A program made the position numbers and the translations under genes. From an uncultured virus (IMG/VR IMGVR_UViG_3300036770_001202) (Duplodnaviria > Heunggongvirae > Uroviricota > Caudoviricetes): 64,000 bases of DNA. Positions 21,552 through 51,687 of this stretch are shown here, one piece after another; the first letter of the stretch is position 1; the number at the start of each line of letters is the position of its first letter. Below the pieces are notes generated by a model. That model saw only the letters and a list, made by a program, of their open reading frames with translations. It made no database searches and was not told where the DNA came from. The stretch lies in the IMG/VR virus record IMGVR_UViG_3300036770_001202; one strand, 5' to 3'.

Positions 21552-22103
21552 ATGGCAATTACTACAATATCAAGTCTGACTAGTGCTATCAGAACTGGTG
21601 CTCGTTCTAATCTGTTCCGAGTGGTACCAACATTCGGAACAGCATTACAGACTACCGGTAGTGCGACCATTGAAGAATTCAGTTTTCTATGTAAGGCTGC
21701 TCAATTACCCGGCTCAACAGTTGGGTTAATTGAAATTCCTTTTATGGCAGGCAGACGATTCAAGGTTGCAGGAGATAGAACTTTTGCTGAATGGACTACA
21801 ACAATTCTTAACGATAAAAATCAAAGAATTCGTCAGTTAGTCGAAGACATTCAGAAAAAATATGGTGTTATCAACTACGAAGAAACATTCGCAAAAGAAA
21901 TTGACGATAGCGCAGTTTCTTCAGAATATTCAACAATGTTGGTTGAACAATTAGATCAAACAGGTTCGGTTATTCACACATACAAATTAGAGAATTGCTG
22001 GCCTAGCGATATCAGCACAATCGACTTGTCATACGATACCACCGATACCATTGAAGAATTTACTGTGACTTGGTCATTCGACTACTTCACAACTGTAGAA
22101 TAA
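21552..22103 (+). CDS. gp19: Tail tube protein gp19, copy 1
   Basis: GARSNLF, CKAAQLPG, AGDRTFAEW and IEEFTVTW. Confidence 0.9.
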   Translation: MAITTISSLTSAIRTGARSNLFRVVPTFGTALQTTGSATIEEFSFLCKAAQLPGSTVGLIEIPFMAGRRFKVAGDRTFAEWTTTILNDKNQRIRQLVEDIQKKYGVINYEETFAKEIDDSAVSSEYSTMLVEQLDQTGSVIHTYKLENCWPSDISTIDLSYDTTDTIEEFTVTWSFDYFTTVE

Positions 22104-22117
22104 TGTAGGGGAAAGAT

Positions 22118-22723
22118 ATGGCAACCACACAAGACGAACTGTTTAGTATTTCAAAATTTAGAGAAACGCTAGGTACTGGTGCTAGGGCTAACCTCTTCCG
22201 TTGTTTCATTAGTGCGCCAACGGACTTGTCAGACTCGAATGGTATTTTCACAGACGAAAGTAAGTTTTCTTTCCTCTGCCGTTCTGCTGCAATTCCAGCA
22301 ATGACATTAGGCGTAATTGAAGTACCATTCAGAGGAAGAAGAATTAAAGTCCCTGGTGATAGAACATTTGCAGACTGGACTGTTACTGTTATCAACGATG
22401 AGAAGCAGCAAATGCGTAAGATCATGGATCAATGGATGAAACTCATCATTAATCCTGATGGTGAACTTGCGCTTAGAGATAGCGATGCTGATTATCGTTC
22501 AACAATTATGATCGATCATTACAGAGCGGATGGATCGGTAAGCAGAGTTTATAATCTTTACAATGCTTTCCCAACTGACGTTTCTGCAATTGATTTGTCG
22601 TATGATACTACAGACGCAATCCAAGAATTCACAATTACCTTCCAATACACTCACATGGATGTTGGTGGTACAAGTGAGTCTGGAGATGCTTCTCAGCCAG
22701 CAACATCGACTACATCTCGCTAA
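22118..22723 (+). CDS. gp19: Tail tube protein gp19, copy 2
   Basis: GARANLF, CRSAAIP, PGDRTFADW and IQEFTITF. Confidence 0.88.
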   Translation: MATTQDELFSISKFRETLGTGARANLFRCFISAPTDLSDSNGIFTDESKFSFLCRSAAIPAMTLGVIEVPFRGRRIKVPGDRTFADWTVTVINDEKQQMRKIMDQWMKLIINPDGELALRDSDADYRSTIMIDHYRADGSVSRVYNLYNAFPTDVSAIDLSYDTTDAIQEFTITFQYTHMDVGGTSESGDASQPATSTTSR

Positions 22724-32665: not shown

Positions 32666-33719
32666 CACACATTTTGGAGTCAGAAACGATTCAAAAATCT
32701 TCCATGAATACTATGAGGACTTTTATAACAACGTCTTCTTTCCTACCCTTCTGGATAAGGGTGTTCGCACTATCATTCAACTAGGCGATCTTTTTGATCG
32801 CCGTAAGTATATAAACTTCTTATCGTTGACTGAAAGCAGACGATACTTCTTTGACAAGTGCAAAGAGTATGGAATTCATATTCATGCATTGATTGGTAAC
32901 CACGACATTTTCTGGCGCGAAAGTTTGGAGGTAAATTCTCCAGGCTTGCTTTTGCGCGACTATACGAATATAACTCTTTGGCAAGATGTTGGTACTTTAG
33001 AAATTGATGGCATCAAGATTGATATGGTGCCATGGATTTGTAAAGAAAACGAACAGAAGATTTTTGATTTCGTTCAAAACTCTACATCACCATATTGCAT
33101 GGGTCACTTTGAACTTGCAGGATTTAATTTGTCGAAAGGTGTGCAGAGTCATGATGGCATCGGCGCGTCATTCTTAGGCAATTACAATCAAGTTATTAGC
33201 GGTCACTATCATACGCATTCAACACAAGACAACGTAATGTATCTAGGTACACCTTATGAGTTGTTTTGGTCAGACTACAAAGACACAAAGTATTTTGCAC
33301 TCTTTGATACCGATACTCTGAAGTTTGAATTGGTAAACAATCCAATTCGCAAATTCTTCAAACTCAACTATGATGACAAACAGTTGCAGATGGAGCAATT
33401 GAAGATCATTGACTTTAGTAGATATAAAAATGGATATGTGAAGGTTGTTGTTATCAACAAACAGAATCCATATCTATTCGACAAACTGTTGGATGAAGTT
33501 TATAAACAAACTCCAGCGGACGTTACTATTGTTGAAGATTTCAGCGATTTAATAAACGAAGAGGCTGATAGTGATATTGTTGATGAAGCACAAGATACCA
33601 TGACAATACTATCAAATTATATTGATGCACAGAGCCTAAATATTTCAGACACAAACAAACTGAAAACTTTGATGCGTGAACTATATGTTGAAGCACTTTC
33701 TACTGAGAATATTGAATGA
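32643..33719 (+). CDS. gp47: Recombination nuclease gp47 (Mre11/SbcD-like)
   Basis: GDTHFG, GDLFD, GNHD and GHYH phosphoesterase motifs. Confidence 0.96.
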   Translation: MKIAILGDTHFGVRNDSKIFHEYYEDFYNNVFFPTLLDKGVRTIIQLGDLFDRRKYINFLSLTESRRYFFDKCKEYGIHIHALIGNHDIFWRESLEVNSPGLLLRDYTNITLWQDVGTLEIDGIKIDMVPWICKENEQKIFDFVQNSTSPYCMGHFELAGFNLSKGVQSHDGIGASFLGNYNQVISGHYHTHSTQDNVMYLGTPYELFWSDYKDTKYFALFDTDTLKFELVNNPIRKFFKLNYDDKQLQMEQLKIIDFSRYKNGYVKVVVINKQNPYLFDKLLDEVYKQTPADVTIVEDFSDLINEEADSDIVDEAQDTMTILSNYIDAQSLNISDTNKLKTLMRELYVEALSTENIE

Positions 33720-35428
33720 TTGTATTTCGTAAATTGAAATGGAAGAATTTCTTGTCAACCGGAAATTACTTCACCGAGATGGACTTGTGTAATAACACAA
33801 CCACACTTATTGTAGGATCAAACGGATCGGGCAAATCTACTATGCTTGATGCATTGACATTTGTTTTGTTTGGTAAAGCATTTCGCAATATCAATAAAAC
33901 ACAGTTAGTCAATACAATCAATGAAAAAGATTGCTTGGTTGAAGTTGAGTTTGATGCAGGTAATAAGTCATACAAAATTGTTCGCGGCATTAAACCGAAC
34001 GTGTTTGAAATTTATTGTAACGGCACACTTGTTACACAATCCGCAGCAGTCAAAGACTACCAAGAACATCTTGAAAAATTCATTCTCAAGTTGAACTACA
34101 AATCGTTCACTCAGATTGTGATGTTGGGTAGCGCATCATTTACTCCGTTCATGCAATTGTCTGCTGCGGATCGTAGAGCCATCATCGAAGACTTGCTTGA
34201 CATTCAAATTTTCTCGCGCATGAATGGTGTTTTAAAAGAGAAGTTTCAAATTCTCAAAGAACAATACCAAGAAGCGAAATATGCTTTTGATCTGAAGACT
34301 GAAAAGATTCAGATGCAGATTCAGTTTATTGAAAACTTGAAGAAGAATACTGAATCAAAGATTGCACAACAAGAACTTGAAATTGCAAACACCGAGTTTA
34401 AGATTGCCGAGAGTCAAACTAAAGAGTCCGATACATCCAATATTTTGTCTGATCTATGCATACAAATTTCAGACAAATCTAAGGTCGATGGTAAACTATC
34501 CAAGTTTGCTACAATCAAAACTAACCTAAGTAAGACAATTACTAAGGTCAATGCTGATATTGACTTCTATCATTCTAATGATGAATGTCCTACATGTAAG
34601 CAAGGCATTCCTCATGAGCATAAGCATACAATTGTCGAAGAACGTAAAGGTAAACTAAAAGAAGTTGAAGATGCTTTGAATAAGTTGAATGATGAAGTTG
34701 ATCAACTAGCAGAACGACAGGAAGAGATTGAACGCATTTCAGAACTGATTACAACTAAAAAATCTGAACTGACTGAAATTCAATCTGAGATTGCGGCAGA
34801 GAAACGATATATTGAAACTCTGAAAAGAGACATTGAACGCATTCGCAATTCAAAGGAAGATGTTGAAGAAGAAAATCGTAAACTGATAACTTTGAATGAG
34901 GAACTTGTTGAACATGAAACCAACATGAAAACTCTTTCTGAGGAAAGACAGTATTATGAAACTGCTACAAGTCTTTTGAAAGATACTGGTATCAAAACTA
35001 AGATCATCAAGCAATACATTCCTGTTATCAATAAGTTGGTAAACAAGTATTTGTCTTCATTAGATTTCTTTGTGAATTTTAATCTTGATGAATCTTTCAA
35101 AGAAACCATCAAGTCGCGTTACCGCGATGACTTCACCTATGCATCATTTAGTGAAGGTGAGAAGCAACGTATCGATATGGCATTGATGTTGACATGGCGT
35201 GCAGTTGCTAAGTTAAAGAATTCGGCAAGCACAAATCTTTTGATACTTGATGAAATCTTTGATTCGTCACTCGATGCAAATGGTACTGAAGACTTGATGA
35301 AGATTTTGGATATGCTTGAAAGCACCAATCTGTTTGTTATCAGCCACAAAGGCGATATTCTTCAAGATAAGTTTTCACACACGATTAAATATGAGAAAGT
35401 AAATAATTTTTCGAGGATTGTAAAATGA
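33716..35428 (+). CDS. gp46: Recombination ATPase gp46 (Rad50/SbcC-like)
   Basis: GSNGSGKS, CPTC zinc hook, FSEGEK and LILDE. Confidence 0.96.
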   Translation: MIVFRKLKWKNFLSTGNYFTEMDLCNNTTTLIVGSNGSGKSTMLDALTFVLFGKAFRNINKTQLVNTINEKDCLVEVEFDAGNKSYKIVRGIKPNVFEIYCNGTLVTQSAAVKDYQEHLEKFILKLNYKSFTQIVMLGSASFTPFMQLSAADRRAIIEDLLDIQIFSRMNGVLKEKFQILKEQYQEAKYAFDLKTEKIQMQIQFIENLKKNTESKIAQQELEIANTEFKIAESQTKESDTSNILSDLCIQISDKSKVDGKLSKFATIKTNLSKTITKVNADIDFYHSNDECPTCKQGIPHEHKHTIVEERKGKLKEVEDALNKLNDEVDQLAERQEEIERISELITTKKSELTEIQSEIAAEKRYIETLKRDIERIRNSKEDVEEENRKLITLNEELVEHETNMKTLSEERQYYETATSLLKDTGIKTKIIKQYIPVINKLVNKYLSSLDFFVNFNLDESFKETIKSRYRDDFTYASFSEGEKQRIDMALMLTWRAVAKLKNSASTNLLILDEIFDSSLDANGTEDLMKILDMLESTNLFVISHKGDILQDKFSHTIKYEKVNNFSRIVK

Positions 35429-36024
35429 TGAATCTTGCTTTAGTTCCAGAAACACATAAAGGATTGAGAGAACCTTGTTTAGAATTTGATTTCAATAATC
35501 CGCCATTTGATCCCGTTGAATTTGAGAAAGAGTTATATTCACTCATGACTCAGAGAAATGGTTTAGGATTGTCTGCAAATCAAGTAGGCGTACCATATAG
35601 AATTTTTGCAATTCGAATTGATGTTGATCCTCTTGTCATTTTTAATCCTATAATTGTAGATCAGTCCGAAAACGAAATTCTTTTGGATGAGGGTTGCTTA
35701 AGTTTTCCTTTATTGTATATGAAGATTAAAAGACCTGACTGGGTTAGAATTCGTTTTCAAACGTCAGATGGAGAAACACACACTGAAAAGTATGGTGGTA
35801 TGACTGCAAGAGTTATTCTGCATGAATATGATCATTTAGAAGGTGTAACTTTTAAAGAACGTGCTTCTAAATTTGCATTAGAACGCGCAACGAGAAAACA
35901 AATGATTCTCAAGAGAGCGCATAAGAAAGCCAATGTTGAATTTTTTAAAAGACAAAGAATGAATGGTACTACTGAACTTGTTCCTCAAGTAGTTGAGACT
36001 TGGTATGAAAAGGATGAAGCATGA
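35425..36024 (+). CDS. def: Peptide deformylase
   Basis: GLGLSANQVG, EGCLS and HEYDH motifs. Confidence 0.93.
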   Translation: MMNLALVPETHKGLREPCLEFDFNNPPFDPVEFEKELYSLMTQRNGLGLSANQVGVPYRIFAIRIDVDPLVIFNPIIVDQSENEILLDEGCLSFPLLYMKIKRPDWVRIRFQTSDGETHTEKYGGMTARVILHEYDHLEGVTFKERASKFALERATRKQMILKRAHKKANVEFFKRQRMNGTTELVPQVVETWYEKDEA

Positions 36025-37121
36025 AAGATTGGCAACATGGGTTTGAACTAGACTATCTAAAAAGTCTAGAAGCAAAATATGCAGACTACAATGCATACAC
36101 ACTTTCTCCTTTTGCAAAGTTTAAAAAGAATAACATTGCAGAATCTTTACATAAAGGTACACTAGTTAAATTAACTGATGACACTATGCTTGAAATTGCA
36201 GAATCAAAGTCTGCAAGCAACATCACAATGCATGGCGAAACTGTTATTGCAAAGAAACAAAAAGGCGATATCACTTTCAGTAAGTTAGTTGGTTCACCTG
36301 ATATTCTTGAACTTGAGATTGTCAAATATAAGACTAGAGATTGCTGGATGTATGTGTGGGCAGAAAACAAAGCACATTGTCAACTAGCAGAAGATTTAGG
36401 ATTCTGTTATGCCGGTCCTAAGATTACCACATACGGAGAAATCTATGCAATTTACTACAGAGGTAAGCCGCGACAGTTTCCCAAATTCGACTCTGCTGAA
36501 TTATTGTCAATCAAGAAAGTTGACAACGTGGATGTTTCTGTGATAGAATCGATACATTCAAAACTAAATTTACTGCCTGCATTTACCAATCATTACAGTA
36601 ATTACAACAAGGACAAATCATGGTCGGCATTGTCATTGCGTGGATACTCTCCGAATCCAGAGTTTATCACCAAGCCAATCGAAATGAGCGACAAGTGGAA
36701 AGAAGAACACAAAGACGAAAACTTCTTTATGCAAGACACTCACTTATTCGAACAATTCGAAGAAGTAAAAGAACTATTGAAAAATTATGGAAGCACATTA
36801 CACCGCGTTAGATTCATGCGATTGAAACCTGGTGGTGGAGAACTTGAACGCCATACCGACCAAGTTGACCCTGACTCAGGTGGCTCGAAAGGTAAACTTG
36901 CTAGACTACATTTTCCAATCAAGACAAACGACAAAGTTGAGTTTACTGTTTGGGATGTAAAAGGTAATGCACAGAAGGTGCATATGAAAGTTGGTGAGTG
37001 CTGGTTTCTAGATACACGCAAAGCACATATGGCAGTAAACGGCGGCGATGAAGAACGTATTCATCTTGTCGTAGACATAGTGACAGAGGAAAAATTACAT
37101 GCTAAACTTATTGACACCTGA
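36021..37121 (+). CDS. GNAT-like N-terminal domain fused to a 2OG-Fe(II) oxygenase (Asp/Asn beta-hydroxylase-type cupin)
   Basis: V.AEN...CQLAEDLGF resembles GNAT motif B. HTD...RLHFPI...KAH.AVN.GDEERIHLV supplies the facial triad and 2OG-binding Arg. Confidence 0.7.
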   Translation: MKDWQHGFELDYLKSLEAKYADYNAYTLSPFAKFKKNNIAESLHKGTLVKLTDDTMLEIAESKSASNITMHGETVIAKKQKGDITFSKLVGSPDILELEIVKYKTRDCWMYVWAENKAHCQLAEDLGFCYAGPKITTYGEIYAIYYRGKPRQFPKFDSAELLSIKKVDNVDVSVIESIHSKLNLLPAFTNHYSNYNKDKSWSALSLRGYSPNPEFITKPIEMSDKWKEEHKDENFFMQDTHLFEQFEEVKELLKNYGSTLHRVRFMRLKPGGGELERHTDQVDPDSGGSKGKLARLHFPIKTNDKVEFTVWDVKGNAQKVHMKVGECWFLDTRKAHMAVNGGDEERIHLVVDIVTEEKLHAKLIDT

Positions 37122-37863
37122 AGAATATCTTGATACAATTAAAGGATGGGAAGACCCTTATCCGCCTCCAGTAGTAGAAGAACATAACGGGTTTCATGTT
37201 GTTCGTGATGATAAGTTAGGTTATGGAAGTAAAGCAAGATTCATTGACTATCTTGTAAGCACGGAGGGTGATGAATGGGTTTTCGGTGGTGCAAACAAAG
37301 TTGGATGGGGACCTATTTCTCTAACACACGTTTGTAATAAATATGGAAAGAAAGCAACGTTTTTCATGGCTAAACGTGCTGCACCAACTTGGCATCAACA
37401 ACAAGTTTTAAACATGGGCGGCACTATTCATTGGGTAGCAAATGGTATGTTGAATGTAACCAAAGCAAAGGCTAGGAAATACTACGAAGAAGATACTGTT
37501 AGTCGTAGAGTATTGCCTCTTGGTCTTGAACACCCAACCGTCTTAGGATCAATCATCAAAGTCGCACGATCATTAAAAATCAAACCTACACAAATCTGGA
37601 CAGTCGCATCAAGCGGAACACTTAATCGTGGATTGCAATTAGCATTTCCTGATGTGCCTGCGTTTGCGGTTGAGATTGGTCACAAGATGAGTGACTATGA
37701 AAAAGGTCGTGCAGAAGTAATGAGGTCGCCATACAAATATGATCAAGCAATCGAAGAGCAGTATGCGCCCCCATATCCTAGTGAAAAGTATTATGATGCA
37801 AAGTTATGGGAATTTGTAAAAGCAAACGGAACGAAAGGAGCATTGATCTGGAATGTCGCTTAA
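37099..37863 (+). CDS. PLP-dependent enzyme, fold type II (ACC deaminase/D-cysteine desulfhydrase/cysteine synthase-like)
   Basis: VRDD.....SKAR (candidate Schiff-base Lys), VASSGTL phosphate loop and YDAK motif. Confidence 0.75.
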   Translation: MLNLLTPEEYLDTIKGWEDPYPPPVVEEHNGFHVVRDDKLGYGSKARFIDYLVSTEGDEWVFGGANKVGWGPISLTHVCNKYGKKATFFMAKRAAPTWHQQQVLNMGGTIHWVANGMLNVTKAKARKYYEEDTVSRRVLPLGLEHPTVLGSIIKVARSLKIKPTQIWTVASSGTLNRGLQLAFPDVPAFAVEIGHKMSDYEKGRAEVMRSPYKYDQAIEEQYAPPYPSEKYYDAKLWEFVKANGTKGALIWNVA

Positions 37864-37891
37864 TCTAATTGCTTAATTTAAAGGAGATAAT

Positions 37892-38152
37892 ATGAGCAAT
37901 GATATTGACAGAGAGAAACATGGTAAACGCATCATGAGAGATGAACATGCAATTCGAAAACAAGTAAAGATTGCAAAGTCTCATGGTTTAGATGTAAAAG
38001 AAGCACATCGATTCGTAAAACACCATGCTTTAAATTGTGGCGATCCTAGTTGTATAATGTGTTCTAATCCTAGAAAAACATTCAAAGAAAAAACAATTCA
38101 AGAAAAACGATTTTATCAAAAACAACTTTTAGATGAATATTCATTAAAATGA
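37892..38152 (+). CDS. Hypothetical basic protein with C....C..C motif
   Basis: SD aaggag; CGDPSCIMCSNPRK. Confidence 0.7.
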   Translation: MSNDIDREKHGKRIMRDEHAIRKQVKIAKSHGLDVKEAHRFVKHHALNCGDPSCIMCSNPRKTFKEKTIQEKRFYQKQLLDEYSLK

Positions 38153-38301
38153 AATATAAAATCGTTGTTAAAACTAAAGACAAAACTTTTGTGAAAGATA
38201 AAAGTAAAAGCAAAGACCATCTTCTTCAAAAGGCAGAAAGTTTATCAAAAAAACATCCAAATTGGAAAGTTTACGTTGTTAGTGAAAATACAGTAATATG
38301 A
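38149..38301 (+). CDS. Small basic hypothetical protein (50 aa, not in ORF track)
   Basis: ATGA overlaps at both ends; MKYKIVVKTKDK... Confidence 0.5.
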   Translation: MKYKIVVKTKDKTFVKDKSKSKDHLLQKAESLSKKHPNWKVYVVSENTVI

Positions 38302-38747
38302 TTAAAGAAAAATACCTCGGTGCATACATGAAGACCGCAAAGGTCTTTGCAGAACTCAGCACCGCAAAGCGAAAGCAGGTGGGTGCGGTTGTTGTAAAAG
38401 ACAACCGCATCATTTCCATTGGGTACAATGGTATGCCAAGTGGATGGACTAACGAATGCGAAGACGTAATAACTCCAACACTTCCTTATTTGCAAGGTGA
38501 CGGTCCTACCCTAAAAACAAAGCCTGAGGTTCTACACGCAGAATCAAACGCAATCGCAAAGTTGGCTAGGTCTACCGAAAGTGGTGATGGTGCAAGTATG
38601 TTTATCACTTGCGCTCCATGCTTAGAATGTGCTAAAATGATATATCAAAGCGGTATACAAGAAGTCTTCTATGGTGAAGCATATCGCAACAATGACGGAA
38701 TAGATTTCCTAAATAAATGCAATATATCAGTAAAGCAATTAGTCTAA
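38298..38747 (+). CDS. cd: dCMP deaminase
   Basis: QVGAVVV, GYNG, HAESNAI and PCLEC zinc motifs. Confidence 0.92.
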   Translation: MIKEKYLGAYMKTAKVFAELSTAKRKQVGAVVVKDNRIISIGYNGMPSGWTNECEDVITPTLPYLQGDGPTLKTKPEVLHAESNAIAKLARSTESGDGASMFITCAPCLECAKMIYQSGIQEVFYGEAYRNNDGIDFLNKCNISVKQLV

Positions 38748-38827
38748 TTTTATTCGCTATAGTGATATTTGGACTGTTACTTGTCATCATACCGATGATA
38801 GGAATGATTATAGGAGTTTTAAAATGA
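38717..38827 (+). CDS. Small single-TM membrane protein (36 aa)
   Basis: MQYISKAISLILFAIVIFGLLLVIIPMIGMIIGVLK; ATGA overlap with the next gene. Confidence 0.45.
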   Translation: MQYISKAISLILFAIVIFGLLLVIIPMIGMIIGVLK

Positions 38828-39045
38828 AAGTTTTTGACACGTTTGAATCTGTTGACAACATGAGTAATTGCATGAAGCGACCCATTGTTGTTCAAGCAAA
38901 ACAGATTGAAGAAGAATTTCGAGTTAATACACTCGAAGGAAATTACAAGCAAGGTAAAGCAGGCGACTATCTGATGAAAGGCATCGATGGCGAACTGTAT
39001 ATTTGCGACAAAGAAATTTTTGAGAAGACATACGATTTTCTATGA
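38824..39045 (+). CDS. Conserved phage protein (PGDYG-like)
   Basis: TLEG...GKAGDYL..GIDGELY.C...IFEKTY. Confidence 0.7.
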   Translation: MKVFDTFESVDNMSNCMKRPIVVQAKQIEEEFRVNTLEGNYKQGKAGDYLMKGIDGELYICDKEIFEKTYDFL

Positions 39046-39215
39046 AATACAAATACGAAAAATTTGAAGACTACTTTAAAGAGATAGAAGGATATTGCTT
39101 AAGGCTCGAAAGATTTCATGATGAGTTTCAAGCGTTAGACTATATTAAACGTGAACGCATGATTGAATGGCTTCAAGCCGCATTTGAGTGTGGAAGAGAA
39201 TACTCCGATGAATGA
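39042..39215 (+). CDS. Small hypothetical protein (57 aa)
   Basis: ATGA overlap; R.ERF....WLQAAFECGR. Confidence 0.55.
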   Translation: MKYKYEKFEDYFKEIEGYCLRLERFHDEFQALDYIKRERMIEWLQAAFECGREYSDE

Positions 39216-39375
39216 AGATGATATTAAGACTGCAAAAGACTTTATTGCATCACTTGAATGGGCTAAAGAGTGTGGACTTGAACTAGAATTCATGACATTC
39301 TTTTTTGAAGAATTTAAACGAAGCAAAAGTGTATATGAATCGATATGGTATGCGAACTGTGAATGGGACCTATGA
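39208..39375 (+). CDS. Small hypothetical protein
   Basis: Overlaps both neighbours; MNEDDIKTAKDF... Confidence 0.5.
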   Translation: MNEDDIKTAKDFIASLEWAKECGLELEFMTFFFEEFKRSKSVYESIWYANCEWDL

Positions 39376-40934
39376 AACATTTTTATGAACGAAACGATTG
39401 GCTGTTAAATCACGAAACAAACAAGACGTTTGAACAAATTCAATGGATGACGGATGATGAATTCAAGCAATGGTTTATTGACTTGCGTAAAGCGGTTGTT
39501 CATGCGTGGGATAATCTTAATCAACCTCCAAGGGTTGGTTGGGACGAAGACGAAATTCGAAAGCAATTTCGAGAAATGTATGGCTTTCCCGTTCATGAAT
39601 TCGAACAAGTCGATGAACTGACTGGTGAGAAAGATATAATTCGTAACACTAGCGTTGTTGGTAATGCGGCTAATCAATGGTTTCCTACAATGATGAAGAC
39701 TCGCATCAACTATACTAAGAATGATGACGGGCTTTCAATCTATGACCATTTCGTTCGTGATGATTTGCTAGACAAAACTCTTAAGTATGCCCGCAGACAT
39801 TACAAGCGTGATTCATTCTATCACTACTCTAACACAGTTAAGGTAGGTGAGGTTCTCACGTTCGGCACACACAAAAAGAAATTCAAGACAGGCGATGAAT
39901 TCGTTCAATGGTTCGAAGACAATAGCATTCGTCAATACGGTTATGACTATTGGGTAGAATCGCGTGACGAAGACGAAGAGTATACTGGCTATAATGAAGA
40001 ACTCAAAGATGCAAAGTATCTTGAAATTTCGAACTTGACCATTTGTCAAGAACACACCCTAAAGAATATTCAAGCGAAGCAATCGAAGTATCGCATTCGT
40101 TTATACAAGTTAGGACAAAGAATTTTTCCTCTTGGCTTCAAAGCATTCCGCGTATCGTGGTGTCAATACGCAGTAAATTTTCCTCCATTGACTGCAAAAT
40201 ATCTCTATGAAAAATTCACAAAGCACATTCAGGGACAAGATAGAATTGTGGTTTACGATCCCTCTAGTGGTTGGGGCGGTCGTATTCTCGGTGCTATGTC
40301 TGTCCGTAGTAGCACTCCCTTACATTATGTTGGTACTGATCCTAATACTGATCACACTATTAGGAGCGATAGTGGTGATACTTCTACTAAGTATGCCGAT
40401 CTGGCTAATTTCTATAATGCCGCCAAGAACTCTGGAGTATTGTTTGAGAGTTCCAATACTTTCGACATATATCAATTGGGTTCTGAAGTCATTGGAGAAG
40501 ACAAACGATTCCAAGAATACAAAGGCAAGTTAGACATGGTGTTCACTTCACCTCCTTACTTTGCTAAAGAGGCGTATAGCGAAGACCCAACACAATCGTA
40601 TAAAAAGTTTACGGGATATGATGCATGGCGCGAAGGTTTCTTGCGACCAACTTTGACAACCGCAGTAGAGTGGTTACGCAATGATCGTTATCTTCTTTGG
40701 AACATTGCTGATGCAAAGTTTGGTAATGACATGCTGCCACTCGAACAAGATAGTATAAATATTCTCAGAGAACTTGGCATGGAGTATAAAGGCATTCTTA
40801 AAATGTCTCTCGCACAAATGCCTGGAGGTAACCGCATCGATCCTGGGACTGGACTTCCTAAAGCGAAGAATTTTTGTAAGGTCAACGGCATGTGGTTGAA
40901 ATATGAACCCATTTTTGTATTCTACAAGCCATGA
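39372..40934 (+). CDS. SAM-dependent amino-MTase-fold DNA modification enzyme with long N-terminal extension
   Basis: Motif I YDPSSGWGGR, GTDPN, and motif IV FTSPPYF. Confidence 0.8.
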   Translation: MKHFYERNDWLLNHETNKTFEQIQWMTDDEFKQWFIDLRKAVVHAWDNLNQPPRVGWDEDEIRKQFREMYGFPVHEFEQVDELTGEKDIIRNTSVVGNAANQWFPTMMKTRINYTKNDDGLSIYDHFVRDDLLDKTLKYARRHYKRDSFYHYSNTVKVGEVLTFGTHKKKFKTGDEFVQWFEDNSIRQYGYDYWVESRDEDEEYTGYNEELKDAKYLEISNLTICQEHTLKNIQAKQSKYRIRLYKLGQRIFPLGFKAFRVSWCQYAVNFPPLTAKYLYEKFTKHIQGQDRIVVYDPSSGWGGRILGAMSVRSSTPLHYVGTDPNTDHTIRSDSGDTSTKYADLANFYNAAKNSGVLFESSNTFDIYQLGSEVIGEDKRFQEYKGKLDMVFTSPPYFAKEAYSEDPTQSYKKFTGYDAWREGFLRPTLTTAVEWLRNDRYLLWNIADAKFGNDMLPLEQDSINILRELGMEYKGILKMSLAQMPGGNRIDPGTGLPKAKNFCKVNGMWLKYEPIFVFYKP

Positions 40935-41101
40935 AAACACTCTTTTGTCCCAAGTGCAAGAAAGACAAACCATCGAACGGTTATTTTTTCAAGCGAGAGG
41001 ACCTCGACCGAGCATCAAAAAAGCAACACTTACAGGTAATTTGCAAGGAATGCGGAGGAAATCCTACCGAAAAAGTGAGAAAAAACCCAAAAATCCTATA
41101 A
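40931..41101 (+). CDS. Zinc-ribbon protein (56 aa, not in ORF track)
   Basis: MKTLFCPKC...ICKECGG; ATGA overlap with the MTase stop. Confidence 0.6.
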   Translation: MKTLFCPKCKKDKPSNGYFFKREDLDRASKKQHLQVICKECGGNPTEKVRKNPKIL

Positions 41102-41649: not shown

Positions 41650-43815
41650 ATGGAAAATCTTCTGAATTCAAAGTCAACCCTTGCGAAACTTCTCGCTACC
41701 GAAAATATCACGGTAGAGTATCGCAAGGCTCAAACGGCTGCCTTTAACGTAGCCACTCGCACACTAACCCTCCCTATCTGGAACGACCTTACCTCTGAAA
41801 TGACTGACCTGATGATTGGTCATGAGGTTGGTCACGCCCTTGATACGCCGCGTGAATATGGCGACAAGGAACTTCAATCATACGGCAATGGTTTTAAAAC
41901 CTTTCTGAACGTAGTTGAAGATGCGCGGATTGAACGCCGCATCAAGGATCGTTATCCAGGTCTCAAGCGATCCTTCTCTAAAGGCTATCAAGAATTCATG
42001 AGCCGCGACTTCTTTGAAGTCAATGGCAAAGATGTTTCTAAGATGCTACTGATTGACCGAATCAATTTGTATTTCAAGATTGGTCCTTTCTTCCCTGTCA
42101 ATTTCAATGAACCTGAAACGGTTTTGGTGAAGAAGGTCGCCGCTTGCGAAACATTCGATGATGTAATTGCAGTCTGCAAGGAATTGTATGACTACTGCAA
42201 AGAGGAACTGGAAGAAAAGCGCCAAGAGGCGATGGAAGACTTTCAGGCTAAAGTAGAAGCAGGCGAATTCGATGATGAATTCGATGATGAATTCGGTGAT
42301 AGTCAATCGAATGATGATTTTGAATATGGAAATCCTAACGAAAGCGAAGATGGCGATGGCTTTAATGATGATGATTTTGACAATGATTTTGACAATGGCT
42401 ATTCAAAGTCTGGCTCACCAGAGTATCGCGATCCAAAAGAATTAGCGCAGTATGATGAAGTCAAGGCTGCTACAGATGAAACCTTGCAAAAGGCTCTGAA
42501 GTCTCTGACTGAACAAAAAGAATTGATGGTCGGTTCAATGCCTTCCATGTCGCAATTCAATTACTCTAATCTGATCATTCCTTTCAAGAATATCGTAGGC
42601 AAAGTGTTCGCTACAGAAACTTATACTGATGGCGAATACAAGGCTGGTATGATTTCTGAATTCGAAGCAAAGAACAAGAATGCAATTGCATACCTTGTCA
42701 AAGAATTCGAAATGAAGAAGAAGGCTGCTGAATTGCGCCGTGTGACTGTCTCTGATACTGGTGTCCTTGATACCAACAAGTTGCACACTTATAAATTCAA
42801 TGACGATATCTTCCGTAAGGTAGGTTCTGTTTCTGCTGGTAAGAATCACGGTATTGTGATGTTCGTTGACTGGTCTGGTTCCATGCAAGACAACATGCAA
42901 GGCACTATCGAACAGTTAATCACACTAACGACATTCTGCCGAAAAGTGAATATTCCGTTCGAAGTGTATGCTTTCTCTACTGCATACCACGATAACGGTG
43001 GAAGTAAAAACCGTGATGCGGTTAAGAATGAAAAGGGTTCGCTTGCACTTGAAAATGGCTGGTGCCTGTTGAATTTGTTTTCTAGCCGAATGAAGAACAT
43101 GGAATATCGCCGCATGGCAAATGACATGTTGAACTACGGCGCATTGATTGCAAATTACTATAAGCGTGGTTACATCAATGATAAATTTGGGCTTGGTGGC
43201 ACTCCTCTGAACCAATGCATTATCTCTGCCGCTGGTATTGTCAACAACTTCCGTAAGTCTTACAAGGCTGAAATTGTTGACGTTATGTTTCTGACTGACG
43301 GCGAAGACTCCGATAACATGTGGACTCACTCCGAGAATATGTATGGCGGTGAAACAAAGCGTATCGGTGCGACAACTCGCTACAGCGTTTCGTATCTTGA
43401 AGATAAGCAAATGTGCAAAAAGTATCGCGTAAGCGATTCGGGTATCACTCCGACTTTGCTTGAAATTCTCAAGGACAAGACTGGTTGCAATTTGATTGGA
43501 TTCTATATCCTTCCGACTCGCCGCCGTTACTTTGATAATGCACTCATGCGATTCTCCATGCCGATTAGCAATGAATCGTTCCAAGCATTCAAGACTGAAA
43601 AGTTTTTCGCGATTAACAATTATGGATATGATCAATACTTCCTGATTCCTGGTGGTAATGATTTGTCCGTTGAAGATGAAGACTTGGATGATCTGTTGGG
43701 AGAAAACAACACTCAAGTTAGTACCCGCAAACTTAAGGGTGCGTTTCTCAAGATGAACAAAAACCGCTTGACTAACCGTGTTCTCCTGTCAAAAGTAATT
43801 GAAGAAATCGCTTGA
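41650..43815 (+). CDS. CobT-like protein: HExxH peptidase-like N-domain, acidic linker and VWA domain
   Basis: GHEVGH, NVVEDARIE, MIDAS motif DWSGS, GGTPL and LTDGE. Confidence 0.85.
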   Translation: MENLLNSKSTLAKLLATENITVEYRKAQTAAFNVATRTLTLPIWNDLTSEMTDLMIGHEVGHALDTPREYGDKELQSYGNGFKTFLNVVEDARIERRIKDRYPGLKRSFSKGYQEFMSRDFFEVNGKDVSKMLLIDRINLYFKIGPFFPVNFNEPETVLVKKVAACETFDDVIAVCKELYDYCKEELEEKRQEAMEDFQAKVEAGEFDDEFDDEFGDSQSNDDFEYGNPNESEDGDGFNDDDFDNDFDNGYSKSGSPEYRDPKELAQYDEVKAATDETLQKALKSLTEQKELMVGSMPSMSQFNYSNLIIPFKNIVGKVFATETYTDGEYKAGMISEFEAKNKNAIAYLVKEFEMKKKAAELRRVTVSDTGVLDTNKLHTYKFNDDIFRKVGSVSAGKNHGIVMFVDWSGSMQDNMQGTIEQLITLTTFCRKVNIPFEVYAFSTAYHDNGGSKNRDAVKNEKGSLALENGWCLLNLFSSRMKNMEYRRMANDMLNYGALIANYYKRGYINDKFGLGGTPLNQCIISAAGIVNNFRKSYKAEIVDVMFLTDGEDSDNMWTHSENMYGGETKRIGATTRYSVSYLEDKQMCKKYRVSDSGITPTLLEILKDKTGCNLIGFYILPTRRRYFDNALMRFSMPISNESFQAFKTEKFFAINNYGYDQYFLIPGGNDLSVEDEDLDDLLGENNTQVSTRKLKGAFLKMNKNRLTNRVLLSKVIEEIA

Positions 43816-43840
43816 CATGCCGTAAAAAATGGAGTATAAT
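43812..43840 (+). promoter_or_regulatory. Early sigma70 promoter (perfect consensus)
   Basis: TTGACA-17bp-TATAAT. Confidence 0.9.
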
Positions 43841-43891
43841 TACTCCTGTAATGATGATGATCTGTTCTGAAACCTGAAAGGAAACTTTGTA

Positions 43892-45064
43892 ATGATTAGC
43901 CGTGAACAAAAAGTTGCGTTTCTTACTGAGGCTGCAAATCGTTTCGGTAGTGTTGTGACTCGCCAGCAAATCGTATCCCTTGCCGATGAGGGATTCGGTC
44001 GCCACTTCTGGCTTGAAAGTGATAAGTATCGGGTTGGTCGCGGTCAGTATCAACTTCCGCTTGATGAATTCAGTATCAATCTGAATGCTGTTTCCGCCAA
44101 GGTTATTGAAATGCCAAAACAAACTCCCGTGGCTGAAGTGAAGCCTGCTACAAAAATTGCATCCGTCAGCCGTGTTGAAGAAGGTGCAATTATTCCGAAG
44201 GTGAATGCACTCTATGTGCCGTTCGGTTTCTTTGACAAGATGAAGGCGATTATCACTAGCCAGCGATTCTATCCTACTTTCGTTTCTGGTCTCTCTGGCA
44301 ACGGCAAGACTTTCATGGTCGAACAAGCCTGCGCCCAAGCCAAGCGCGAATTTCTCCGTGTGAATATTTCACCTGAGACTGATGAGGATGATCTGATTGG
44401 TGGCTTCCGTTTGATTGACGGTGAGACTAAGTGGTTCGATGGTCCTGTCATTCAAGCAATGAAGCGTGGTTCTGTTCTGGTGCTTGATGAAATCGACCGT
44501 GGTTCGAACAAACTAATGTGTCTGCAAGGCATTCTTGAAGGTAAGGGTGTTCTGATCAAGAAGACGGGTGAGTATGTTGAACCTGCGAAAGGTTTCAACG
44601 TAGTGGCTACCGCTAACACCAAGGGTAAGGGTGACGAGACTGGTCGCTACATGGCTGCAACAATTCTTGATGATGCGTTCCTTGAGCGTTTCCCGATTAC
44701 CGTTGAACAAGAATATCCTGACACCAAGGTAGAGACTAAGATTCTCTCCAAGATGTTTGATAGCCTTGGCATTCAAGATAAGGCATTCGCCGAGAATCTT
44801 GTGAAGTGGGCTGATATCATTCGTAAGACTTTCGAAGAAGGTGCGATTGATGAAATCATTTCCACTCGCCGTCTTGTCCACATCGCTGAAGCATACACTA
44901 TCTTCAACGATAAGATGGATGCGATTCAATACTGTATCAATCGTTTCGATGCAGAGACTAAGAATTCTTTCCTTGACCTTTACACTAAGATTGACGCTGG
45001 TATCGATCCAACGGCAACTACCGAAGTGAAAAAGGATGAGACTAGCGAAGAAATTCCGTTCTAA
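43892..45064 (+). CDS. CobS/MoxR-family AAA+ ATPase
   Basis: GLSGNGKT, DLIGG, LVLDEID, ATANTKG and AFLERF; adjacent to a VWA partner. Confidence 0.9.
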   Translation: MISREQKVAFLTEAANRFGSVVTRQQIVSLADEGFGRHFWLESDKYRVGRGQYQLPLDEFSINLNAVSAKVIEMPKQTPVAEVKPATKIASVSRVEEGAIIPKVNALYVPFGFFDKMKAIITSQRFYPTFVSGLSGNGKTFMVEQACAQAKREFLRVNISPETDEDDLIGGFRLIDGETKWFDGPVIQAMKRGSVLVLDEIDRGSNKLMCLQGILEGKGVLIKKTGEYVEPAKGFNVVATANTKGKGDETGRYMAATILDDAFLERFPITVEQEYPDTKVETKILSKMFDSLGIQDKAFAENLVKWADIIRKTFEEGAIDEIISTRRLVHIAEAYTIFNDKMDAIQYCINRFDAETKNSFLDLYTKIDAGIDPTATTEVKKDETSEEIPF

Positions 45065-49615: not shown

Positions 49616-50019
49616 TGGCAATTGATATTGAGGATTTGCTAGAAGTAAGGCTAAAAACTGAAGATGACTTTCTAAAAGTCAAAGAAACACTTACAAGAAT
49701 TGGTGTTGCGTCCCGTAAAGATAAAACGCTATATCAATCTTGTCACATTCTGCACAAACGCGGAAAGTATTACATTGTCCACTTCAAAGAACTTTTTGCA
49801 TTGGATGGCAAAAGCACAGACTTTGAAGACAACGATATGGGCAGACGAAACACTATTGCTAATCTACTTGCCGAATGGGGTCTTGTAGAAGTAGTCAATA
49901 AAAACAAAGCAGAGCAGCCTGTTGCTCCTCTGTCACAAATTAAGATTATTTCTCACAAAGAGAAAGATGAGTGGCAGTTGGTGACAAAGTATAACATTGG
50001 AAAGAAAAGGGAAGTCTGA
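49615..50019 (+). CDS. regA: Translational repressor RegA
   Basis: FLKVKETLTRIG and LYQSCHILHK.GKYYIVHFKELF.LDG. Confidence 0.96.
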   Translation: MAIDIEDLLEVRLKTEDDFLKVKETLTRIGVASRKDKTLYQSCHILHKRGKYYIVHFKELFALDGKSTDFEDNDMGRRNTIANLLAEWGLVEVVNKNKAEQPVAPLSQIKIISHKEKDEWQLVTKYNIGKKREV

Positions 50020-50456
50020 TGGAAGAACTTGTTCAAGCGGCAAAGGTTGTCTTAGCCAATCACTATGCTTTTTATGTAAAGGCGCAAAATTATCATTGGA
50101 ACGTAACTGGTCCTGATTTTAGTCAGTATCATGAACTTTTCGGTAAAATTTATGGTGAAGTTGGCGATACAATCGACACCCTAGCCGAACAAATTCGTGC
50201 TATGGATGCATATGCACCAGGAAGTTTTTCTCGCTTTTCTGAACTTTCTGAACTCGAAGATGAGTTGAGTGTTCCTACTCCAGCAGAAATGTTTCGCCGT
50301 CTTTTAAATGACATTGCACTCATTCAAGGCAGCATTATGAGAGCATATCATTTGGCTGAAGAAAATATGCAGCATGGATATAGCAATCTTATGGCAGAAC
50401 GTCAAGATGCATTCAATAAACATGCATGGATGATCAAAGCAACATTGAAGGTTTGA
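50019..50456 (+). CDS. dps: Dps/ferritin-like protein
   Basis: YHWNVTGPDF..YHELF, D.LAEQIR and KHAWM. Confidence 0.9.
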   Translation: MEELVQAAKVVLANHYAFYVKAQNYHWNVTGPDFSQYHELFGKIYGEVGDTIDTLAEQIRAMDAYAPGSFSRFSELSELEDELSVPTPAEMFRRLLNDIALIQGSIMRAYHLAEENMQHGYSNLMAERQDAFNKHAWMIKATLKV

Positions 50457-50481
50457 CAACCGCAGTAGACTTTGATATAAT
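50453..50481 (+). promoter_or_regulatory. Sigma70 promoter (perfect consensus, extended -10)
   Basis: TTGACA-17bp-TATAAT, with TGn before the -10. Confidence 0.9.
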
Positions 50482-50557
50482 ACAGAATATCTCCGGAAGG
50501 AGTATGGGTGCTAAGACCTTCTTAGCAATTTTTGAAATTTAATATGAGGAAATAACT

Positions 50558-50803
50558 ATGGCATTCGTTAAATCTGGTAAGACCCAAAATGAACTTCTGG
50601 TTTCATATCTGCGTGGTACAGGTCGCGGTATCAGCGCACCTCAGGCTCGCGCATTGTTCGGAGTGAAGAATCTCCGCGCACGAATGAGCGATCTGCGTCA
50701 AGCAGGTCTTACCGTTCGTAAGGCTATCAATACTGAGGGAAACACAACTTATTTTGTGTCTCGCCGTGCAATTGATGGCTCTCAGGCATATATCGCTGTA
50801 TAA
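50558..50803 (+). CDS. Small winged-helix/HTH DNA-binding protein
   Basis: ISAPQARALFGVKNLRARMSDLRQAG helix-turn-helix pattern. Confidence 0.75.
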   Translation: MAFVKSGKTQNELLVSYLRGTGRGISAPQARALFGVKNLRARMSDLRQAGLTVRKAINTEGNTTYFVSRRAIDGSQAYIAV

Positions 50804-50806
50804 ATA
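50799..50806 (+). promoter_or_regulatory. T4-type late promoter for the hsp20 operon
   Basis: TATAAATA overlapping the HTH gene stop codon. Confidence 0.75.
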
Positions 50807-50812
50807 ATAATA

Positions 50813-50926
50813 CTCTCGGGATGGGAGGGCAGGGGGTGCGACCTGCGGTAGTTTAAAACGCACATTTAACTGCCATGCCTTAGGGGTGGCAAATTTTATT
50901 TTACTCGCTTAACTAAGGAGAAAACT
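50813..50926 (+). ncRNA. Structured 5' leader: hairpin, H-type pseudoknot, hairpin, and ROSE-like SD-sequestering hairpin
   Basis: Complementary segments CTCTC/GGGAG, GCAGG/CCTGC, GTGCG/CGCAC, TGCCA/TGGCA and CTC(G)CTT/AAGGAG. Confidence 0.6.
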
Positions 50927-51151
50927 ATGTTACAAGCACTCAATATGTTCATCGACACCTTCCAAGGTGCAAAATCGCAATTCGTTAAGACTTATGTTCA
51001 AAACGAAGAAATCGCGAGACCTCTCAATACTTACATTAATGCACAGACTGCATTTGCAAAAAATGTAGCACAAGAAGTTTTGAACTTTTCAACTACAGTT
51101 GGAACTTCTATGTGGACGTTTGACGCGAAAAAAGCATTTGCAACTAAGTAA
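50927..51151 (+). CDS. Small amphipathic-helix protein (possibly phasin-like)
   Basis: Strong SD; Ala/Gln/Phe-rich helical pattern FIDTFQGAK...INAQTAFAK. Confidence 0.6.
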   Translation: MLQALNMFIDTFQGAKSQFVKTYVQNEEIARPLNTYINAQTAFAKNVAQEVLNFSTTVGTSMWTFDAKKAFATK

Positions 51152-51159
51152 TAGGGAGA

Positions 51160-51687
51160 ATGAACATGACACAACTACCTTCAATCTTTGGTCAATTTAA
51201 AGATTTCGACAAACTGTTTGTTGGATTCGATGACACCTACAATCGTCTTGCTAAAATGCATGATGATTTGACAAAGAGCATTCCTAACTATCCTCCATAC
51301 AACATTAAGAAAATTGATGACAACAAGTATGTCATTGAACTTGCGGTTGCTGGATTCTCAAAGTCTGAAATTGAAATTGAATTTGAGAACGATAAACTAA
51401 TCGTTAAAGGAAATGCAAAAGATGATGATGCTACCGACTGGCTGTATAAAGGAATTGCAACTCGCAATTTCACACGCACATTTGCACTAGATGATAAAAT
51501 CGAAATCAAAGGTGCTGCACTAGTCAATGGTATGCTTCAGATTGCTTTGGAAAAAATTATTCCTGAGCATAAGAAATCAAAGAAAATTGAAGTTAGCGAA
51601 GAACCTTCTACAGTTTCAGAGTTTGCTTCTAAAAACAAGCCACAGTTGCTTGTAGAGGAAGGAGACTTAAATGAACGTTCTAAGTAA
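51160..51687 (+). CDS. Small heat-shock protein (Hsp20/IbpA family)
   Basis: NYPPYNI, IELAVAGF, LYKGIA.RNF.R.F.L and NGML.I.L. Confidence 0.95.
   Translation: MNMTQLPSIFGQFKDFDKLFVGFDDTYNRLAKMHDDLTKSIPNYPPYNIKKIDDNKYVIELAVAGFSKSEIEIEFENDKLIVKGNAKDDDATDWLYKGIATRNFTRTFALDDKIEIKGAALVNGMLQIALEKIIPEHKKSKKIEVSEEPSTVSEFASKNKPQLLVEEGDLNERSK

Follow-up and report, generated by a model that had tools for sequence, protein, structure and literature searches.

Three genes, here called oxy, plp and mt, mark one region of a 64,000-nucleotide stretch of DNA from an uncultured virus of the Caudoviricetes (IMG/VR record IMGVR_UViG_3300036770_001202). The whole stretch is referred to as the window, and positions are counted from its first letter. 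According to its Pfam content, the 64 kb window is part of a T4-like myovirus. The oxy gene follows those of gp46 and peptide deformylase (def), and encodes a GNAT-fold domain fused to a 2-oxoglutarate (2OG)-Fe(II) oxygenase. It overlaps by 23 nucleotides plp, which encodes a short pyridoxal phosphate (PLP) enzyme. Further downstream, mt encodes a large protein with the fold of the amino-methyltransferases dependent on S-adenosylmethionine (SAM). The three genes recur together in related phages, and occur elsewhere as a single polypeptide. Their coordinates and those of their domains and motifs, all on the + strand, are as follows.

36021–37121, +: oxy, GNAT-fold domain and 2OG-Fe(II) oxygenase, 366 amino acids (aa), core member
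36039–36476, +: oxy residues 7–152, GNAT-like fold (VIA-align)
36489–37091, +: oxy residues 157–357, AspH/proline-hydroxylase-like double-stranded beta-helix (VIA-align)
36852–36860 and 37062–37064, +: oxy metal ligands, H278/D280 and H348 (codons checked)
37099–37863, +: plp, short fold-type-II PLP enzyme, 254 aa, core member
37231–37233, +: plp Schiff-base lysine K45, in GSKAR
37609–37620, +: plp SSGT motif
39363–40934, +: mt, amino-methyltransferase-fold protein, 523 aa, core member (the start is perhaps the ATG at 39372)
39363–40148, +: mt residues 1–262, conserved N-terminal extension, no family match
40149–40931, +: mt residues 263–523, class-I SAM-dependent amino-methyltransferase fold (VIA-align)
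40257–40283, +: mt motif I, DPSSGWGGR, residues 299–307
40542–40559, +: mt motif IV, FTSPPY, residues 394–399

The two-domain architecture of oxy is confirmed by an AlphaFold model (predicted local distance difference test, pLDDT, 91.6). Residues 191–354 match the Pfam family PF05118, Asp_Arg_Hydrox (E 4.8e-14; 52.9 bits versus a cut-off of 22.6), and the metal ligands, H278 and D280 of an HTD motif (residues 278–280) and H348, are invariant in 19 homologues. Structural neighbours of residues 157–357 are AspH (8re5_A, Z 15.4), 4p7x_A (Z 15.1; Foldseek E 1.5e-11) and 7v4p_A (Z 15.1). The HxD...H triad, the Pfam score and the fold are common to oxy and to the 2OG-Fe(II) oxygenases AspH and L-proline cis-4-hydroxylase (PF05118); oxy differs from them in its fusion to a GNAT fold, and in having PLP and methyltransferase partners. 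Homologues of oxy number 964 at E<=1e-3. NCBIfam holds no match for oxy, plp or mt.

GNAT enzymes bind the pyrophosphate of acyl-coenzyme A (acyl-CoA) by a loop of the type Q/R-x-x-G-x-G/A. Residues 7–152 of oxy superimpose on GNAT structures by VIA-align (2pc1_A, Z 11.7, root-mean-square deviation 3.6, 137 aligned; 2fia_B, Z 10.9; 8zt3_D, Z 10.5). Measured against the loop motif, the segment between the strand at 108–113 and the helix at 117–125 reads AENK, and is not glycine-rich. No Pfam GNAT family is matched at E<=1 by residues 1–190, and hhalign finds no sequence similarity between oxy and the Mom protein of phage Mu (probability 0.2%; the control, Mom, scores PF25680 at E 2.4e-75). The sole homologue of oxy among cultured phages is gp4 of Mycobacterium phage LilMcDreamy (probability 99.8%, E 4e-30). 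Its gene lies directly after one of the ADDT (amino-acid:DNA transferase) family, in a block opened by a ParB-like gene; the position next to the ADDT gene fits an enzyme working on an amino-acid adduct on DNA. A separate observation concerns gp2 of the same phage (L003:855–1787), annotated as queuine tRNA-ribosyltransferase, which shows only a weak match to the Tet_JBP oxygenases (E 0.0022, under the cut-off). The gp2 gene precedes the ADDT gene and the oxy homologue, and the block is possibly an uncharacterised hypermodification block.

The plp product matches phrog_7093, 'threonine dehydratase' (E 1.3e-25), and its relatives carry PF00291. An earlier reading of the letters alone (the sequence-only reading) had taken it for a fold-type-II PLP enzyme. 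The GSKAR and SSGT motifs are indeed in place, and K45 is invariant in 50 representatives at 30–52% identity. The protein is, in addition, a homologue of a DNA-tailoring PLP decarboxylase, gp52 of Pseudomonas phage M6: hhalign aligns residues 32–254 of plp to residues 18–277 of gp52 over 217 columns (probability 97.6%, E 4.7e-12), with K45 opposite K36 of gp52, and pairwise BLASTP gives E 6e-8. Both proteins have the C-terminal signature PPYPS..YDAK..WNVA. In the available text of Lee et al. (NAR 2021, PMC8989533), M6 gp52 and gp226 of Salmonella phage ViI are PLP enzymes modelled on the tryptophan-synthase-beta/1-aminocyclopropane-1-carboxylate (ACC) deaminase fold; in vitro they decarboxylate C-alpha-glycinyl-thymidine and O-serinyl-thymidine within DNA, and K36 of gp52 is proposed as the internal-aldimine lysine. 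The plp enzyme has the same short fold-type-II form (~250–280 aa) as these two. In the M6 and ViI pathway the amino acid is placed on 5-hydroxymethyl-dU by a DNA kinase and an amino-acid:DNA transferase; here, in contrast, the fused or adjacent partner of the PLP enzyme is a protein with an amino-methyltransferase fold. The plp family profile also reaches TrpB, cysteine synthase, serine dehydratase and ACC deaminase (E 1e-4 to 2e-2), the lysine region being aligned to TrpB. Searches of the PDB sequences by phmmer with plp and with mt gave nothing at E<=1.

Amino-methyltransferases are recognized by a SAM-binding motif I and a motif IV, (S/D/N)PP(Y/F), of which the SPPY form is typical of N4-cytosine enzymes. 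The sequence-only reading had seen an MTase-fold protein with DPSSGWGG and SPPY and a long N-terminal extension; this description is borne out, the protein measuring 523 aa and the extension ~262 residues. DPSSGWGGR and FTSPPY are invariant in 19 homologues. The match to PF01555 is weak (E 5.6e-4; 20.4 bits, under the gathering cut-off of 26.7), and mt is also matched by the PADLOC model MTase_II (E 1.5e-8). Homologues number 2301 at E<=1e-3, and many of them carry PF01555. The model (pLDDT 84.4; predicted TM score, pTM, 0.80) has a C-terminal half with Trm11 (5e72_A, Z 15.3), TrmN (3tma_A, Z 14.8), METTL5 (6h2u_A, Z 13.6) and PrmC (2b3t_A, Z 12.8) as VIA-align neighbours; Trm14 is found in the same range (Z 12.8–15.3). 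The best PDB match of the mt profile is a Thermus modification methylase (E 0.17). In the homologue alignment the N-terminal extension features many invariant residues. No Pfam family is matched by residues 1–270 at E<=1, nor does the extension have an Atlas match at 0.9 or more.

Stand-alone phage methylases 26–32% identical to the catalytic half of mt share with it G(W/F)GGR and FTSPPY. One of these, NVP2058O_092 of Vibrio phage 2.058.O, has the FTSPPY motif and is annotated as an N4-cytosine methylase via the conserved site IPR017985 of InterPro. Orphan or ParB-linked amino-methyltransferases of phages (PF01555), such as NVP2058O_092 and gp1 of Erythrobacter phage R6L, include stand-alone members that share motifs with mt. 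In contrast to these, mt has a conserved 262-residue extension, and near-obligate PLP and oxygenase partners.

A scan of IMG/VR with plp identified 49 loci, all in T4-like contigs sharing the gp47-gp46-def frame. One (L004) is identical to the window; in the others plp is 68–92% identical. The end of oxy lies within 100 nucleotides of plp in 44/44 loci with room upstream, and mt is found downstream in 26 of the 27 loci with at least 4.6 kb of downstream sequence. Co-occurrence of the three enzymes across phage genomes, which the sequence-only reading had left to a neighbourhood check, is thus found within this clade, and they are fused elsewhere. In 10 of the 41 loci holding mt, the gene starts exactly where plp ends, and the dCMP deaminase, the 86-aa protein and the other small open reading frames (ORFs) that separate plp from mt in the window are missing. 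Median identities to the window are 77.6% for plp, 78.9% for mt, 72.1% for gp46, 70.2% for gp47 and 56.5% for the deformylase; plp and mt are as conserved as gp46 and gp47. The core unit is made by oxy, plp and mt, and the deaminase, a zinc-ribbon-like ORF and five small ORFs are changeable neighbours. The earlier inclusion of the dCMP deaminase in the module does not hold, as the 10 loci in which mt directly follows plp lack the gene. The same applies to the zinc-ribbon protein, found in only one (L009) of the 48 other loci.

Fused forms provide evidence for linkage which is independent of synteny. The plp profile was searched against 1.84 billion representatives, and matched 1462 proteins at E<=1e-3 (50% clustering level), 239 of which at E<=1e-30. 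Among the best 150 matches, 34 representatives exceed 330 aa. These have been sorted by architecture.

13/34: N6_N4_Mtase and PLP domains, from two methyltransferase lineages (9 methyltransferase matches at or above the Pfam cut-off)
2/34, within the 13: methyltransferase-AspH-PLP (mt-oxy-plp) triple fusions, P0361 (1081 aa) and P0375 (1138 aa)
9/34: YunG-like (PF24585) and PLP domains, in P0366, P0369, P0370, P0377, P0382, P0390, P0396, P0447 and P0452
2/34: DUF3102 and PLP domains
1/34: ParB_N and PLP domains
9/34: PLP domain, no further domain

Domains of 5-hydroxymethyldeoxyuridine (5-hmdU) kinase or of amino-acid:DNA transferase were found in 0/34. The triple fusion P0361 matches the catalytic half of mt (probability 99.8%, E 3.5e-29), oxy, including part of the GNAT-like domain (E 3.7e-45), and plp (E 4.2e-113). 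In a metagenome scan, three separate contigs each held the triple fusion in one intact ORF, of 1082, 1085 and 1074 aa, and the protein is therefore not an assembly artefact. Of the YunG-like matches only that of P0377 is above the Pfam cut-off; P0370 is an oxy-YunG-PLP protein (E 2.2e-52 versus oxy). The YunG-like domain has no similarity to oxy or mt. In the IMG/VR scans no YunG-PLP fusion was found, and the triple-fusion query gave PLP-domain matches only. Synteny in the clade and the single polypeptide found elsewhere agree with the earlier view that the three enzymes form one unit.

In a second lineage a PF01555 methylase is split by the PLP domain into a part with motif I and a part with motif IV. 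This architecture is found in R6L gp1, P0404, P0418, P0427, P0462, P0468 and P0474. The methylases of this lineage align to mt only in the motif IV region (probability 58–91%), and R6L gp1 accordingly belongs to a methyltransferase lineage other than that of mt. In the available text on R6L, gp1 is called a CcrM-like methylase; a PLP domain is not mentioned there, nor is DNA chemistry reported (PMC5463345). In Microcystis phage Mae-JY30 the gene of a 294-aa PF01555 methylase overlaps the start of the PLP gene. The methyltransferase-PLP core is found in three cultured phages, R6L, ZS04 and Mae-JY30. Methyltransferase and PLP parts coexist without GNAT or oxygenase parts in R6L, Mae-JY30, P0362, P0364 and P0394, and the minimal recurrent pair is a methyltransferase fold with a gp52-type PLP enzyme.

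The contigs carrying the triple fusion differ from the T4-like loci in content. No phage structural genes were found among 25 ORFs scanned. Serine recombinases occur on two contigs, a full-length type III Mod lies directly downstream of the fusion on two, and Res with a PDC-S57 candidate defence gene occurs on one. PADLOC matches near the fusion are Mod MTase_III (E 3e-107), REase_III (E 3.3e-22) and PDC-S57 (E 1.4e-72). The methyltransferase region of the fusion partly resembles mad2 of the MADS system (PADLOC E 9.2e-10), and these contigs further encode a caspase-like protease, Sel1 repeats and an adhesin. From these contents it follows that the module also exists outside phages, with genes of DNA-directed conflict around it, a neighbourhood which supports DNA as the target.

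The enzymes that install amino acids on DNA in the gp52 pathway were looked for by family. Neither PF18724 (ADDT) nor PF18723 (the helical domain of 5-hmdU kinase) is matched by the 66 ORFs scanned in the window. Two complete relatives carrying the module, G002 (150 kb) and G004 (172 kb), both with terminal repeats, were also searched: PF18724 and PF18723 gave 0 matches in either, the kinase P-loop family PF18748 not being part of the search, and no match to PF00303 (ThyA family) was found. ThyX is present in G004 only. As positive controls, M6 matches PF18724, PF18723 and PF00303, and LilMcDreamy matches PF18724. The remark in the sequence-only reading that neither hmdU kinase nor amino-acid:DNA transferase is visible in the window is upheld, and extends for these two families to the two complete relatives. 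Something else must therefore supply the substrate of plp.

Judged from sequence and fold, oxy, plp and mt may make up one pathway of nucleic-acid base modification, based on transfer of the 3-amino-3-carboxypropyl (acp) group of SAM, hydroxylation and decarboxylation, a reading to which we give about an even chance. The module itself is the firmer claim, its chemical steps being inferred. In the pathway, mt would bind an exocyclic amine, N4 of cytosine or N6 of adenine, and alkylate it with a SAM-derived group. Cytosine N4 may be the target, with adenine N6 as the alternative. The group would most likely be acp rather than methyl, because the plp family handles alpha-amino acids tethered to DNA; acp is proposed because PLP enzymes of this family require a free alpha-amino acid carried by the base, and acp is the only part of SAM offering one. 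The oxygenase domain of oxy, closest to amino-acid hydroxylases, would hydroxylate the side chain, and the GNAT-fold domain would bind the substrate or add an acyl group. By homology to M6 gp52, plp would link to the free alpha-amine through a Schiff base and remove CO2. The product would be a positively charged aminopropyl or hydroxy-aminopropyl base. The mark on the DNA bases is probably larger than methyl, and the target is most likely the phage's own DNA after replication. For such a base a nuclease-blocking role is plausible, and the anti-restriction role suggested by the sequence-only reading is conjectural.

The same enzyme logic is known from microcin C. During its maturation MccD, a methyltransferase-fold enzyme, donates acp, and the PLP domain of MccE then decarboxylates the group to aminopropyl, as described in the available text of PMC10491745. 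Tyw2 and MccD are known acp transferases with a Rossmann fold. The substrate of MccD and MccE is a peptide-nucleotide phosphate and not a DNA base, and the likeness to mt and plp is in logic only.

Several observations weigh against the acp pathway. The chemistry of mt, oxy and plp is wholly inferred, and no precedent was found for a protein of this fold placing acp on DNA. Structurally, mt is closest to amino-methyltransferases of tRNA, rRNA and protein rather than to DNA methyltransferases. The motifs of mt are found also in homologues that have no PLP partner, in Vibrio phage 2.058.O, Bacteroides phage DAC16 and Mammaliicoccus phage PMS2, and no sequence mark of a non-methyl donor separates mt from its stand-alone homologues. 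In oxy, the GNAT-like domain features no obvious CoA-binding loop. The related loci represent one phage clade, and their synteny alone is weak evidence. One of them, L017, has oxy and plp with no mt in its 56-kb record (28% complete), and in the more distant T4-like contigs L058 and L059 plp follows gp46 or def without oxy. A complex prediction for mt residues 255–523 and plp, with SAM and PLP, scored 0.00, and counts neither way.

Other explanations draw on parts of the same evidence. Remodelling of the cofactor may come first, in that plp, with or without oxy, would alter SAM, for instance to decarboxylated SAM (dcSAM), and mt would then transfer aminopropyl, as in the logic of spermidine synthase or of CmoA and CmoX. 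In phage S-B43, according to the available text of PMC12783734, CmoA makes carboxy-SAM and the methyltransferase-fold CmoX transfers carboxymethyl to DNA cytosine; the review covering MccD and MccE leaves room for a reversed order via dcSAM (PMC10491745), and in R6L-type proteins the PLP domain interrupts the methyltransferase, with the SAM-binding motif on one side and motif IV on the other, which would suit the same scheme. However, the closest characterised relatives of plp act on DNA adducts and not on free SAM, and in LilMcDreamy the gene before the oxy homologue encodes an amino-acid:DNA transferase, an enzyme that can do without remodelled SAM; prior remodelling of SAM is unlikely. About as improbable is a different installer, either the GNAT domain using an aminoacyl donor in the manner of Mom, or plp itself, by beta-replacement via an aminoacrylate, with mt only methylating the base or the appended group. 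Mom belongs to the GNAT superfamily and is reported to move glycine from Gly-tRNA to N6 of adenine in double-stranded DNA (PMC13219725, available text), and residues 7–152 of oxy have the GNAT fold; the hhalign probability of 0.2% speaks against kinship of the two. The cysteine synthases and TrpB matched by the plp profile are beta-replacement enzymes, but plp and the decarboxylase gp52 can be aligned nearly from one end to the other. The YunG-like domain, which replaces the methyltransferase in 9/34 long plp relatives, favours a different installer, whereas the core pair found in many genomes is methyltransferase and PLP with no GNAT or oxygenase.

The functions of the genes may instead be unrelated, mt being an orphan DNA methyltransferase making N4-methylcytosine or N6-methyladenine, and oxy and plp auxiliary metabolic enzymes acting on free amino acids or proteins. 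In cultured phages the mt catalytic domain does have stand-alone homologues whose surroundings hold no PLP gene, the solved structures nearest to oxy belong to hydroxylases of free proline or of a nucleoside-antibiotic precursor, and T4-like aquatic phages carry many 2OG oxygenases, another one being present in L059. Double and triple fusions in several lineages, the insertion of the PLP domain within the methyltransferase fold, the homology of plp to a DNA-adduct decarboxylase and the near-obligate linkage within the clade make unrelated functions quite improbable. The acp chemistry could also be correct and directed at another target, RNA (tRNA or rRNA) or free deoxynucleotides before replication, rather than double-stranded DNA. 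The top structural neighbours of mt, Trm11, TrmN, Trm14 and METTL5, would suit such a target, acp is known on RNA from Tyw2 and Tsr3 (PMC10491745, available text), and mt neighbours a dCMP deaminase here and in Vibrio phage 2.058.O. The sequence profiles are those of DNA methylase families (PF01555, Eco57I, PADLOC MTase_II), the ParB_N fusion and the adjacency to type III restriction-modification genes point to DNA, and gp52 provides a precedent on DNA; a target other than double-stranded DNA is likewise given little probability.

The hypermodifications of phage DNA known so far begin with 5-hydroxymethylpyrimidines, 7-deazaguanine, carboxy-SAM or Gly-tRNA. If the acp pathway is correct, alkylation of exocyclic amines from SAM would be a new entry point, and the product probably a new cationic base. 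The closest pathway in an aquatic phage is that of CmoA, CmoX and CmoY in Synechococcus phage S-B43, where a group other than methyl is transferred by a methyltransferase-fold enzyme and then offers a point of attachment for further tailoring. It differs in modifying C5 of cytosine, in using carboxy-SAM from CmoA, and in the subsequent action of an ATP-dependent amide ligase on 5-carboxymethylcytosine (PMC12783734, available text). A PLP enzyme, an oxygenase and motif IV of the amino-methyltransferases are all lacking from this pathway. Mom likewise decorates an exocyclic amine of DNA with an adduct derived from an amino acid, and has a GNAT fold (PMC13219725, available text), as does the N-terminus of oxy. 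In contrast to the module, Mom works alone, without SAM, PLP or 2OG, and has no detectable sequence similarity to oxy. A literature search, with most subscription journals outside it, returned the known thymidine, Mom and CmoX systems, and no published description of a methyltransferase-PLP DNA pathway was found. It is tentatively suggested that the module would write the first DNA base modification made from the acp of SAM, an acp group on N4 of cytosine or N6 of adenine which is hydroxylated and decarboxylated, widespread in aquatic T4-like phages, and made also by a single 1,080-aa enzyme next to restriction-modification genes on mobile or cellular DNA; this fuller proposition is possible and more doubtful than not.

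The module is abundant: at E<=1e-3, mt has 2301 homologues and oxy 964, and plp has 1462 representatives. DNA modified in the way proposed would withstand many nucleases, and both sequencing chemistries and methylation callers would be disturbed by it. With the single-chain triple fusion, one compact enzyme would be at hand to write a reactive amine onto DNA. The cultured phages R6L, ZS04 and Mae-JY30 make the methyltransferase-PLP core testable.

The genes surrounding the core in the window are as follows.

33716–35428: gp46, directly before the deformylase
35425–36024: peptide deformylase (def), directly before oxy
37892–38152, +: 86-aa protein with a C..C..C motif (phrog_4499, E 1.2e-9), neighbour, not core
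38149–38301: small ORF between plp and mt
38298–38747, +: dCMP deaminase (PF00383, E 2.5e-22; phrog_174, E 9.4e-49), neighbour, not core
38824–39045: small ORF between plp and mt
39042–39215: small ORF between plp and mt
39163–39375: small ORF between plp and mt
40931–41101, +: 56-aa CxxC...CxxC zinc-ribbon-like protein (weak Pfam matches, under cut-offs), neighbour, not core

All five genes listed in the sequence-only reading were found by an ORF check at the positions given there, on the + strand. The run after gp46 and def had been described correctly as to these genes, and incompletely, since five small ORFs between plp and mt were left out. The start of the zinc-ribbon-like ORF overlaps the stop of mt (ATGA). 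The dCMP deaminase, the zinc ribbon, the 86-aa protein, a PGDYG protein and the CobT/CobS-like genes were considered as members of the module and rejected, being variable in presence or ordinary T4-like neighbours.

Pfam structural genes of the window are those of gp8, neck, sheath-stabiliser, terminase, sheath, two gp19 tubes, portal gp20, prohead protease, scaffold and gp23; replication and recombination genes are those of UvsY, UvsW, gp47, gp46, gp45, gp44/62, RegA, DNA polymerase, UvsX and the gp41 helicase. All reside on the + strand. Compared with cultured phages by megablast, the region gave no match. The T4 late-promoter octamer, TATAAATA, occurs 15 times on the + strand of the window versus 3.2 expected, mostly just 5' of structural genes (2235, 15211, 19574, 22744, 24392, 26642, 27502, 28933). 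In the window scan none precedes oxy, plp or mt, and one lies inside the 3' end of mt. The module is probably of the early or middle replication-gene class. Sigma-70-like promoters and terminators are at chance level in the 32–42 kb interval (32 versus 29.9, and 4 versus 5.9, respectively).

In L061:4006–9483 and L063:5218–7416 the fusion is followed by a type III restriction-modification pair and a T5orf172/PDC-S57 candidate defence gene. Directly 5' of the fusion, and overlapping its start codon with the stop codon, lies the gene of a protein of 236–245 aa and of no known family; two contigs share 93% identity in this protein. The coordinates of the gene are:

L060:3585–4295: protein preceding the triple fusion
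L063:1094–1831: protein preceding the triple fusion
L062:6861–7571: protein preceding the triple fusion

A 443-aa protein, also of no known family, is encoded further upstream in two of the contigs. No alignment was obtained between the N-terminal extension of mt and either residues 1–172 of the triple fusion or the two conserved genes upstream of the fusion.

Other genes are worth recording. In L017 (1976–4113) plp is followed, instead of mt, by genes of NifU, an IscA-like Fe-S assembly protein, a cytochrome c, a staphylococcal-type nuclease and DUF1353. In the window, 41650–45064 encodes a 721-aa CobT-like protein (phrog_459, E 4.5e-194; more weakly phrog_5298, 'cobalamin biosynthesis protein') and a CobS-like AAA_5/CbbQ_C ATPase, a pair found 3' of the module in nearly all related loci. 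Two gp19 tail-tube paralogues are adjacent at 21552–22103 and 22118–22723 (PF06841, E 6.4e-6 and 2.8e-10). A GDP-mannose-4,6-dehydratase/NAD-epimerase gene (PF16363, E 2.6e-62) and a cytidylyltransferase-like gene (PF01467, E 1.2e-12) at 55971–57385 form a sugar-nucleotide cassette within the replication module, in the interval from the DNA polymerase region to UvsX. A ferritin-like gene (PF00210, E 4.1e-19) and an Hsp20 gene (PF00011, E 2.4e-19) reside at 50019–51687, between regA and the DNA polymerase gene.

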